DNA of 36,301 nucleotides from Thermodesulfobacteriota bacterium (GTDB taxonomy: Bacteria; Desulfobacterota_D; UBA1144; Nemesobacterales; N074bin48), in NCBI GenBank assembly GCA_041572575.1, contig JBFFSH010000022.1:1-36301 (forward strand). The letters run 5' to 3'. The position numbers were made by a program. Positions 5,276 to 8,200 of this stretch are shown piece by piece. Position 1 is the first letter of the stretch; each line of letters starts with the position of its first letter.

Positions 5276-8200
5276 TGATTATTTTGCTTCTACAGCATAC
5301 AACCACTACATTTTTCCGGTTAATTTACTTGGCTATTCAGGATATTTCTAATCGATTTATATAACATTTCTATTGCTACATATTCAATATTTAGGTATAC
5401 GTAATAGATTTTTTAATAACTTTGAGGTAACCAATGGATTTACAACAGATTGCAGATGAAGTTTCGAAAAGCACTAATATAAATGTAAGCAAAACTGATA
5501 TAGAGCGTTTGGTAAGCATTTTAAGAAAAAAAACCAACCCATGGGAGATTATTGACCGCTGCGATTTTCCTATTCCTGCTGTGTTTGAATCGATTGAAAG
5601 GCTAAATAGCACGGATATTGTAAATATTACGGATAAAGGTATTGAGCTTACAAATAAAGGAAGGGAATCGGCTAGCGAGCTGCACCCGGTTGAAGACTTA
5701 TCGTGTAAAACATGCGAAGGCAGAGGGATTGACCTTAAAAAATTTGCTCCTGTAAGGGAAAAATTTATACAGCTGCAGCGTAAAAGACCAAAGCCGTCCC
5801 ATGATTATGATCAGGGATACGTTACACCCCATTCTACATTTTCAAGGTTTTTGGCAGCATATGAAAGGGGTGATATATACGCAAAGGATATACTTATCAT
5901 TGGTGATGATGATCTGCTTAGCATCGTACTGGGGCTAAGTGGTATGCCAAAGAGCATCACTGTGTTGGAGATAGACAAGAGGCTTACAAAGTTTATTGCT
6001 CAAATTGCAGAACAGGAAAAATTTGAGGTTAACATCGAACCATTTGATATGAGAAAACCACTTCCCAAAAAATATATTAAGAGTTTTGATACATTTTTTA
6101 CCGACCCCCCAGAGACTTTAAAAGCAGCAGATGCATTTGTTGGTAAGGGTATTAGCACTCTCAGATCGGCAGGGTGTTCAGGATATTTTGGATTTACGAG
6201 AAGAGAAGCATCGCTAAATAAGTGGTATGACCTGCAGAAACTGCTCACAAGCTACAAGGTAGTAGTAACCGATATAATGCACAACTTTAACGAGTATATT
6301 AACTGGGGCTATGAAAAGGAAACAAGAGCCTGGGAGCTTTCACCCCTTAAAATAAAGCCTAAGAAAAATTGGTACAGATCTGCTTTTTACAGAATTGTTA
6401 CACTTAAGGGATATAAAGGAAGCAGCAAAAACTACGGTACACAAAATATCTATGAAGATATAGAGAGTTCAACAACCTGACTTTAATATGCCAAAGAGAA
6501 CCGATATAAAGAAAATATTGCTTATAGGATCAGGCCCCATTGTGATTGGACAGGCCTGTGAATTTGATTATTCCGGTACTCAGGCGTGTAAGGCGCTAAA
6601 AGAAGAGGGTTTTGAGATAGTGCTTGTAAACAGCAATCCGGCCACTATTATGACAGACCCCTCAATCTCTGATAAAACCTACATAGAGCCGCTAATCCCC
6701 GAAATACTTGAAAAAATTATTGAAAAAGAAAGACCGCAGGCATTGCTTCCTACGATCGGAGGTCAGACGGGTCTTAACCTTGCCGTTAGTCTTGCCGAGA
6801 GCGGGGTGCTTGATAAATACGGAGTCGAGCTTATCGGAGCAAACCTTGAGGCTATAAAGAAAGCAGAGAACAGGGATAAATTTAAAGATGCCATGATAAG
6901 CATAGGGCTTCAGGTCCCAGAAAGCGGAGTAGCAAGAACCATGGAACAGGCCTGGGAAATTGTGAAGAGGGTTGGCTATCCCGTAATTATCCGCCCGTCA
7001 TTTACCCTTGGTGGGGTAGGCGGCAGTATTGCATATAATAAAGAAGAGTTTGAAGATTTTTCAAAAGCGGGTCTTCATATGAGCCCTGTGACGGAGATAC
7101 TGGTAGAGCAGTCGGTTATAGGATGGAAAGAGTTTGAGCTTGAGGTAATGAGAGACTCTGCTGACAATGTTGTAATCGTATGTACAATCGAAAACTTTGA
7201 CCCCATGGGTGTGCACACCGGAGACAGCATAACAGTAGCTCCTTCGCAAACACTTACAGATAAAGAATATCAGAGGCTGAGAGATGCTTCTATAGCGATC
7301 ATAAGAGAGATTGGAGTAGATACCGGGGGCTCAAACATTCAGTTTGGTATAAATCCTGAAAATGGTGATATTGTGGTAATAGAAATGAACCCAAGGGTTT
7401 CAAGAAGTTCGGCTCTTGCCTCAAAGGCTACGGGATTTCCAATTGCAAAGATTGCTGCAAAACTTGCAGTAGGATATACACTCGATGAGATAGCAAATGA
7501 TATCACAAAATATACCCCTGCTTCATTTGAACCAAGTATAGATTATGTAGTAGTTAAAATACCAAGGTTTGCATTTGAGAAGTTTCCACAGACTGAGCCC
7601 CTTCTTACTACCCAGATGAAATCAGTGGGAGAAGTTATGGCAATAGGAAGGACATTTAAGGAATCAATGCAAAAGGCAATACGTTCTCTTGAGATTGATT
7701 CAGCCGGGTTTGAAAGCAAAACGGATGATCTTGGCATAATTAAAGATAAACTCAGAAAGCCAAACCCCGACAGGCTATGGTACCTGGCCGATGCATTCAG
7801 GGCTGGATTGGACTTGGAAGAAATTTTTGATTTAACCTATATTGATCCGTGGTTCTTGCAGAATATAAAACAGATAGTGGATGCAGAGACCGATCTGATC
7901 AAGTCTTCTAAAGATGGAGGGGTTTCGGTAGATGATTTCAGGCTTTTAAAACAATACGGATTTTCAGATGAGAGACTTGGCTTTCTACTTGGCAAAAGTG
8001 AAGATGAAATTAGAAATACTAATCTTGATAATGGTATAAAGTGTGTTTATAAAATGGTTGATACATGTGCTGCGGAATTTGAAGCGCATACCCCTTATCT
8101 GTACTCTTCCTATGAACAGGAAGACGAAGCCCTTCCAACTGACAGGAAAAAAGTAATTATTTTAGGCGGAGGTCCAAACAGAATAGGGCAGGGAATAGAG

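Follow-up and report, generated by a model that had tools for sequence, protein, structure and literature searches.

A conserved BpsA orthologue in a mesophile-like Dadabacteria lineage and the polyamine that it may branch

The bpsA locus and its product

The window, a 36,301-nt stretch of contig JBFFSH010000022.1 from a Thermodesulfobacteriota bacterium (genome G000), carries an orthologue of the branched-chain polyamine synthase gene bpsA within a conserved tsaD/thiC/[bpsA]/carB/greA block, the features of which are as follows.

3404..5278, plus strand: thiC, the upstream neighbour of bpsA, part of the conserved block
5434..6480, plus strand: bpsA orthologue encoding P0001 (348 aa), branched-chain polyamine synthase family, by similarity, Pfam and AlphaFold model
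5704..5715, plus strand: C91-x-x-C94 motif in the N-terminal domain, kept in 92/93 clade and 62/62 outside sequences
5902..5913, plus strand: GDDD motif (G157-D160), by alignment
6103..6375, plus strand: span of D224, E258, Y288 and Y314, predicted to activate the acceptor
6451..6477, plus strand: C-terminal lid YEDIESSTT (YDDEESSTT in T. kodakarensis)
6488..9703, plus strand: carB, starting 7 bp past the bpsA stop, part of the conserved block
9749..10225, plus strand: greA, which follows carB throughout the phylum

We take the last open reading frame to be greA from recognition of its sequence. The order of these genes is maintained among relatives, with carB immediately 3′ of bpsA in 15 of 17. 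The two exceptions are G006, in which a short open reading frame has been called between bpsA and carB, and G003, which stops at a contig edge. An empty form of the same block, in which thiC adjoins carB, occurs in 6 of the 20 bpsA-negative genomes examined. A promoter and terminator scan of positions 3250-6600 gave results at chance level, and bpsA and carB are probably co-transcribed.

P0001 aligns through residues 3-348 with the BpsA of T. kodakarensis (EC 2.5.1.128; PDB 5xnc, 5xnf and 5xnh), at 45% identity over the whole length (E 5.1e-103 against 5xnc), and matches both the P. furiosus protein 2qm3 (E 9.9e-105) and Thermus BpsA (E 1e-69; 34-36% identity). The Pfam BpsA_C model scores 298.6 bits on P0001, NCBIfam has no model for it, and of its named relatives the nearest (89%) carries the label Candidatus Dadabacteria. 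The AlphaFold model (pLDDT 95) predicts a fold that superposes on 5xnc with a TM score of 0.97 and an rmsd of 1.2 Å, and that is shared, at TM 0.94, with T. thermophilus BpsA (6j27; C9 tail-swap mutant 6j28). The C91-x-x-C94 pair is presumably a metal-binding motif. The GDDD motif is described as orienting the aminopropyl group of dcSAM (PMC12979288). D224, E258, Y288 and Y314, which correspond to D225, E259, Y290 and Y316 of T. kodakarensis, are each present in all 93 clade BpsA sequences, and the catalytic residues as a whole are unchanged across this set but for a single D159A (D159 in 92/93). No pocket substitution fixed in the 93 clade sequences relative to thermophile BpsA was found when these were compared with the outside sequences.

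The survey's note on this genome had described an acidic C-terminal carrier tail. Such a tail is present, shares the pattern Y-x-D-x-ESSTT with T. kodakarensis and aligns with it, but just three of the five carrier positions are acidic (E341, D342 and E344); the residue numbering of PMC12979288 is 2 off that of 5xnc, and the carrier residues were matched by pattern. The Thermovibrio orthologue likewise keeps three of the five, and that of P. furiosus four, while the last 20 residues hold three acidic residues in P0001 as against five to seven in most orthologues of families f2 and f3 (see below). The tail of P0001 also aligns with that of the swapped Thermus mutant 6j28, and the match to native 6j27 ends ahead of the C-terminal tail, which does not align. 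P0001 is confirmed as a true, full-length BpsA orthologue, encoded between thiC and carB; it retains every catalytic residue and ends in a tail of the Thermococcus type. It is very probably a functional enzyme of the BpsA type.

Distribution and inheritance of bpsA

Among 120 genomes of the phylum, bpsA orthologues were found in 18, comprising both genomes of family f1 (G000 and G030), 14 of the 15 in f2, both in f3 and none of the 101 in f4-f9. Weak partial matches to PF01861 in G021 and G113 (21-26 bits) were left out of this count. Both the distribution and the adjacency to carB in 15 genomes reproduce what the survey's note had reported. The single f2 genome without bpsA, G001, also has no carB match at E 1e-100 while speD is present, and an assembly gap is therefore likely. 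A scan of genome contigs with P0001 as the single query protein returned one locus and named no further carriers.

Families f1, f2 and f3 make up one side of a well-supported branch (0.995 in one tree, 100 in another) in phylum trees built from 43 and 27 of the 120 genomes. The E. coli root of these trees meets long branches, so that one gain and one loss of bpsA are both compatible with them, and loss from an ancestral position is not favoured over gain. The placement of G000 in a 16S tree is unreliable. In a BpsA tree of 64 rows, of which 17 are full-length proteins from the genomes, 21 are other clade proteins and 26 lie outside the clade, families f1, f2 and f3 come out as in the species tree, and so do the subgroups of f2; this congruence rules out recent transfer of bpsA into G000. 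Between G000 and G030 the dN/dS of bpsA is about 0.04, with synonymous sites near saturation, and that of carB and thiC is 0.027. The low ratio and the intact catalytic residues rule out a pseudogene or relic. An assembly or binning artefact is ruled out by independent contigs, conserved position and the congruent trees; bpsA is spanned by contigs of two runs, X3 (33.6 kb) and X15 (2.4 kb). By these comparisons, bpsA is under purifying selection and is vertically inherited upstream of carB.

Growth temperature and habitat of the host

The whole-proteome IVYWREL share of G000, from crude ORF calls, is 0.398 and its CvP about 3.5; the Zeldovich formula turns the former into 38 C. The mesophile-like composition claimed for this genome was recovered in this value and in the GC content of the 23S rRNA, given earlier as 51% and measured at 50.3% for the 23S region on contig C91. 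Two distinct rRNA operons were binned together, one of them foreign, and they are 77% alike in their shared 16S part. Their 16S GC contents are nearly equal (54.9% and 55.4%), so the mesophile reading is independent of which operon is native. Both values fall inside the range of bpsA-negative relatives (50.6-55.5%, 16 sequences), and f2 carriers span 54.9-59.3% (9 sequences).

In a comparison of IVYWREL with 42 relatives on matched orthologues, which supplied 3,300-10,600 residues per genome, G030 agreed with G000 (+0.002), 16 of the 24 bpsA-negative f4-f9 genomes looked warmer than G000, and all 16 bpsA-bearing f2 and f3 genomes tested scored +0.012 to +0.037 over it, nominally 49-73 C. The index resolves temperature coarsely, given that bpsA-negative f8 genomes go up to a nominal 62 C, and it does not allow the lower-scoring f2 genomes to be classed; f1 lies firmly among the cool ones. 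The survey's note had itself allowed for thermophiles in f2, a caution that these values bear out, and had counted the sharing of bpsA by three families in favour of mesophily. The carriers in f2 and f3 all score warmer, one with a 16S GC of 59.3%, and because these families look warmer they give no independent support. What stands of the proposal that a supposedly thermophile-only enzyme occurs in a mesophile is a conserved orthologue in a mesophile-like genome; the three-family support and, as described below, the feeding genes do not stand. The mesophile case for bpsA thus rests mainly on f1, and the composition of this genome indicates that the host is probably not a thermophile.

The full stretch was found in 14 DNA runs of 7 studies with sediment, soil or marine labels, all 14 of which are flagged as possible sources of the genome. 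With the flagged runs set aside, study P8 (seawater) contains 0.98 of the stretch and study P9 about 0.2. An earlier account placed it in seawater runs of one study; here the runs come from several studies, and most carry sediment or soil labels. Hot spring and vent do not appear among the labels of the 24 runs, although run labels in themselves carry no temperature. Runs X19 and X20, with small shares of the stretch, and X21-X24, with none of it, did not enter the habitat reading. Coverage by RNA run X15 is even across all 30 bins, as in DNA; within bpsA, X17 has one 151-bp piece and X19 has none.

Most BpsA matches outside the clade lack a name, and a few have one to class only; thermophily was judged on those named to genus. 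These are Thermococcus, Pyrococcus, Palaeococcus, Methanocaldococcus, Methanotorris, Methanothermococcus, Methanofervidicoccus, Thermovibrio, Desulfurobacterium, Balnearium, Thermovirga, Thermosynergistes, Acetomicrobium and Thermoflexus, every one a thermophilic genus.

Polyamine genes and the acceptor of BpsA

The supply of dcSAM in these genomes points to SpeD, the gene for which lies apart from bpsA.

C5:5567-5944: speD of G000 (E 2.5e-39), keeping the SH cleavage site, H, C and the HTWP proline region, by motif criteria from PMC10407285

SpeD is found in 17 of the 120 genomes, namely 16 of the 18 bpsA carriers and G001, and in none of the 101 genomes of f4-f9; the two carriers with no SpeD match are genomes 88-89% complete. 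SpeD thus tracks bpsA almost exactly. Because of this tracking and the existence of a separate arginine decarboxylase, a reading of SpeD as a neofunctionalised arginine decarboxylase is disfavoured.

Searches for a canonical spermidine synthase detected the SpeE N-terminal domain PF17284 in 7 of 14 controls and in none of the 120 genomes. PF01564 matches occur in seven of the 120 (45-73 bits), four of them bpsA carriers and three without SpeD. In G000 (completeness 96%) this match is an 889-aa, 13-segment membrane fusion (NF037959) with GMGSG replacing GGGDG. A SpeE profile (TIGR00417), the training sequences of which score 380-472 bits, found in six frames of G000 just this fusion (68 bits) and an RsmD-like methyltransferase. 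The acidic GGGDG loop is absent from three of the four carrier fusion proteins inspected, and the fourth gives no motif match. No match in G000 was obtained for CASDC or the CASDH/HSS family (carboxyspermidine families were searched in G000, and PF16653 also in four other carriers), for agmatinase, or for PLP ornithine or arginine decarboxylase, and none in G000 or G016 for a PotD-family binding protein. Matches resembling potA occur in five genomes, all under the cut-off, and the best locus reads as a sugar ABC cluster. Among the 80 metagenome loci kept out of 293 matches, speE lies within 6 kb of bpsA at 11 of 57 outside loci and at 0 of 23 clade loci.

Three genes had been proposed to feed BpsA in this genome. 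Arginine decarboxylase, an agmatine-deiminase-family enzyme and SpeD are indeed present, but they yield no spermidine, because a spermidine synthase is needed and none was found; the canonical product N4-bis(aminopropyl)spermidine is for the same reason not to be assumed. P0001 is a member of the BpsA family that lies outside the canonical spermidine-fed pathway, and the missing spermidine route implies either a new substrate, and with it a new natural polyamine, or an unknown source of spermidine.

Judged by homology, the phylum carries the gene set of an agmatine/SpeY (CdmS)-type homospermidine route (PMC13625781, PMC10981699). Pyruvoyl arginine decarboxylase (ADC) is found in 112 of the 120 genomes (G000, E 4.7e-62), a DHS homologue in 113 and in all 18 bpsA carriers (G000, E 2.8e-88), deiminase in 75 and agmatinase in 46, with one or other of the last two in 17 of the 18 carriers. 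In PMC13625781, all bacterial SpeY enzymes tested are shown to produce homospermidine through G44G, together with partners of this kind. G000 differs from this pathway in that its genes are scattered, with the DHS homologue on C129 and the deiminase on C6, its DHS homologue scores 222 bits with the SpeY model (cut-off 500) and 407 with its nearest model, PRK00805 (cut-off 434), and there is no clear amidase, the best nitrilase-family match to N-carbamoylputrescine amidase (AguB) reaching 130 bits against a cut-off of 410. By its scores, homospermidine is a putative product of this homologue. In f8, a canonical SpeY-type gene beside a deiminase is the sole DHS-family match in 14 of 19 genomes examined, 2 of the 14 exceeding the SpeY cut-off, which suggests, by analogy, a replacement of like by like.

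If P0001 is functional and its host not a thermophile, there is about an even chance that homospermidine is the acceptor. This polyamine would be made from arginine by the pyruvoyl ADC, the DHS homologue and the agmatine-deiminase-family enzyme. SpeD would be a dedicated supplier of dcSAM and BpsA its sole consumer; by analogy with the T. kodakarensis orthologue, the GDDD motif of P0001 would position dcSAM, and acidic residues of the tail may carry the aminopropyl group, to be handed to the central secondary nitrogen of the polyamine. The predicted product is N5-aminopropylhomospermidine [4(3)4], perhaps with the quaternary [4(3)(3)4], and BpsA might alternatively branch a bis-guanidino precursor of homospermidine. 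We tentatively prefer the explanation that BpsA branches homospermidine in the non-thermophilic Dadabacteria lineage f1, and regard it as possible rather than probable. Its extension, in which BpsA as sole dcSAM consumer makes N5-aminopropyl- and N5,N5-bis(aminopropyl)homospermidine, free of spermidine, in f1 at ambient temperature and in its warmer sisters, is slightly more doubtful. A literature search found no report of either compound from a microbe.

A T. thermophilus delta-speE mutant, the closest natural mimic of a genotype with bpsA and without SpeE, accumulates homospermidine, with long and branched polyamines undetectable (PMC9654539); the tail of Thermus BpsA differs from that of P0001. 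Thermus, like G000, has a DHS homologue, used there to make homospermidine (PMC10981699), and unlike G000 it has SpeE. The Thermus enzyme is described as a generalist, and the Thermococcus type as preferring longer linear polyamines (PMC12979288). This mutant speaks against homospermidine as the acceptor, as do the DHS score under the SpeY cut-off, the lack of a clear amidase and the lack of a clade-specific change in the pocket.

The same mutant and the T. kodakarensis-type pocket and tail, with no fixed change, favour canonical chemistry in a mesophilic host, with N4-aminopropylspermidine and N4-bis(aminopropyl)spermidine made from spermidine gained otherwise. The source might be import by a non-Pot system, a membrane-fused SpeE-like or unrecognised enzyme, or BpsA itself acting on agmatine or putrescine, and G000 has both the SpeE-like fusion and a deiminase that could perhaps process aminopropylagmatine. 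Against such sources, the fusion-type match is found in just 4 of the 18 carriers and also in genomes without SpeD, its loop is mostly missing, PotD-family proteins were not found, BpsA does not replace SpeE in the Thermus mutant, and the activity of BpsA on short diamines is weak (PMC12979288). We consider canonical chemistry rather unlikely.

Another possibility, and to us an unlikely one, is that the host is moderately thermophilic, or meets hot spells, as in warm sediment or sun-heated flats, and that the gene fits the known rule. An f2-clade protein is named from 'bacterium HR37', presumably of hot-spring origin; the sister families score warm, the genus-named outside relatives are thermophiles, the sediment, soil and marine labels say nothing on temperature, and a hydrothermal clade is known in the phylum (PMC8115339). 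Opposed to this are the proteome composition and 16S GC of G000, the agreement of G030, the many bpsA-negative genomes that look warmer and the want of hot-spring or vent labels. Least probable is that the gene has a changed job (linear aminopropylation or another amine acceptor), is a relic or has been mis-binned. No route of synthesis was found for the usual acceptor, the tail is poorer in acidic residues and the bin contains a foreign rRNA operon, but the Thermovibrio enzyme keeps equally few carrier acidics, the acceptor-activating residues are all retained, and purifying selection, congruent trees, conserved position and independent contigs contradict a relic or misplaced gene.

Relative to T. 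kodakarensis BpsA, with which it shares the GDDD motif, the D/E/Y/Y residues and the tail pattern, P0001 is set apart by its mesophile-like host, the lack of a spermidine route, its three carrier acidics and its position before carB. In a 2026 review, bpsA orthologues are called 'strikingly restricted' to thermophiles and branched polyamines a signature of heat (PMC12979288). A search of mostly open-access literature, beyond which the primary BpsA papers and Hamana's surveys lie, found no paper that deals with BpsA orthologues of mesophiles, with the polyamines of Dadabacteria or with homospermidine as a substrate of BpsA. A conserved BpsA in a mesophile-like lineage would, if true, weaken bpsA as a marker of thermophily and make a non-thermal role of branched polyamines testable. 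A role in membrane and fluctuation stress has been described (PMC12175538), and in f1, speculatively, such polyamines might protect nucleic acids and membranes in fluctuating conditions rather than in steady heat. The cost of branched polyamines limits their use in DNA capture (PMC12979288), and a BpsA active near 30 C would ease their enzymatic synthesis. The host itself may build a branched polyamine of an undescribed kind.

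Window genes and the variable segment

The first 141 nucleotides of the window constitute a repeat present at high depth, and one contig from each of two sequencing runs (X3 and X15) skips 1,908 bp at window 132-2041. This segment is a strain-variable insert adjoining the end of a mobile element. The following features are encoded here and further downstream:

355-1146, ORF, no Pfam match
1151-1801, ORF, no Pfam match
23004-24020 (-), 338-aa ORF with several cysteines, no Pfam match
28549-33654 (+), pilMNOPQ-like type IV pilus assembly genes

The 338-aa ORF differs from the housekeeping genes that surround it. 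The pilMNOPQ-like names are those we take to apply from sequence recognition.

BpsA and SpeD relatives, and the rRNA operons

Among the relatives of BpsA, a 507-aa Thermoflexus protein of the P0147 cluster contains a BpsA part and is named adenosylmethionine decarboxylase by NCBI; it is a predicted BpsA-SpeD fusion in a thermophile. Another protein, P0299, belongs to the BpsA cluster of family f1 and lies on a 2.5-kb contig labelled Bacteroidetes, which is probably mis-binned. The relative G009 carries a second, divergent SpeD homologue (L201, G009:C1:170489-170809) that is 39% identical to SpeD of the source bin (G000) and resides within a purine-gene region. In the literature, the presence of two SpeD copies has been taken to hint that a decarboxylase has undergone neofunctionalisation.

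Two rRNA operons occur in the source bin (C100:1040-2587 and C91:8041-8628), and the 16S portion that they share is only 77% identical. The C91 16S is nearer to other phylum members (84-91%) than is the 3′ part of the C100 16S (79-83%). One of the two operons is foreign or chimeric.

Candidate homospermidine genes across the phylum

The source bin also encodes a putative enzyme, recognized by its sequence as a deoxyhypusine synthase (DHS) homologue:

C129:691-1752, PRK00805-like DHS homologue

This methanogen-type homologue is near-universal across the bacterial phylum, including its 1-Mb pelagic genomes, and is accompanied by an archaeal-type pyruvoyl arginine decarboxylase. In three relatives (G005:C46, G006:C138 and G007:C5), the agmatine-deiminase match falls inside open frames of 665-687 aa, approximately twice the usual length, representing a probable fusion whose partner is perhaps the amidase. 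In family f8 (loci L153-L171), an agmatine-deiminase gene and a canonical SpeY-type gene form a tandem pair. Alongside this SpeY-type gene, 5 of the 19 f8 genomes keep the PRK00805-type DHS homologue of the phylum; in the other 14, that homologue has apparently been displaced by the SpeY-type gene.
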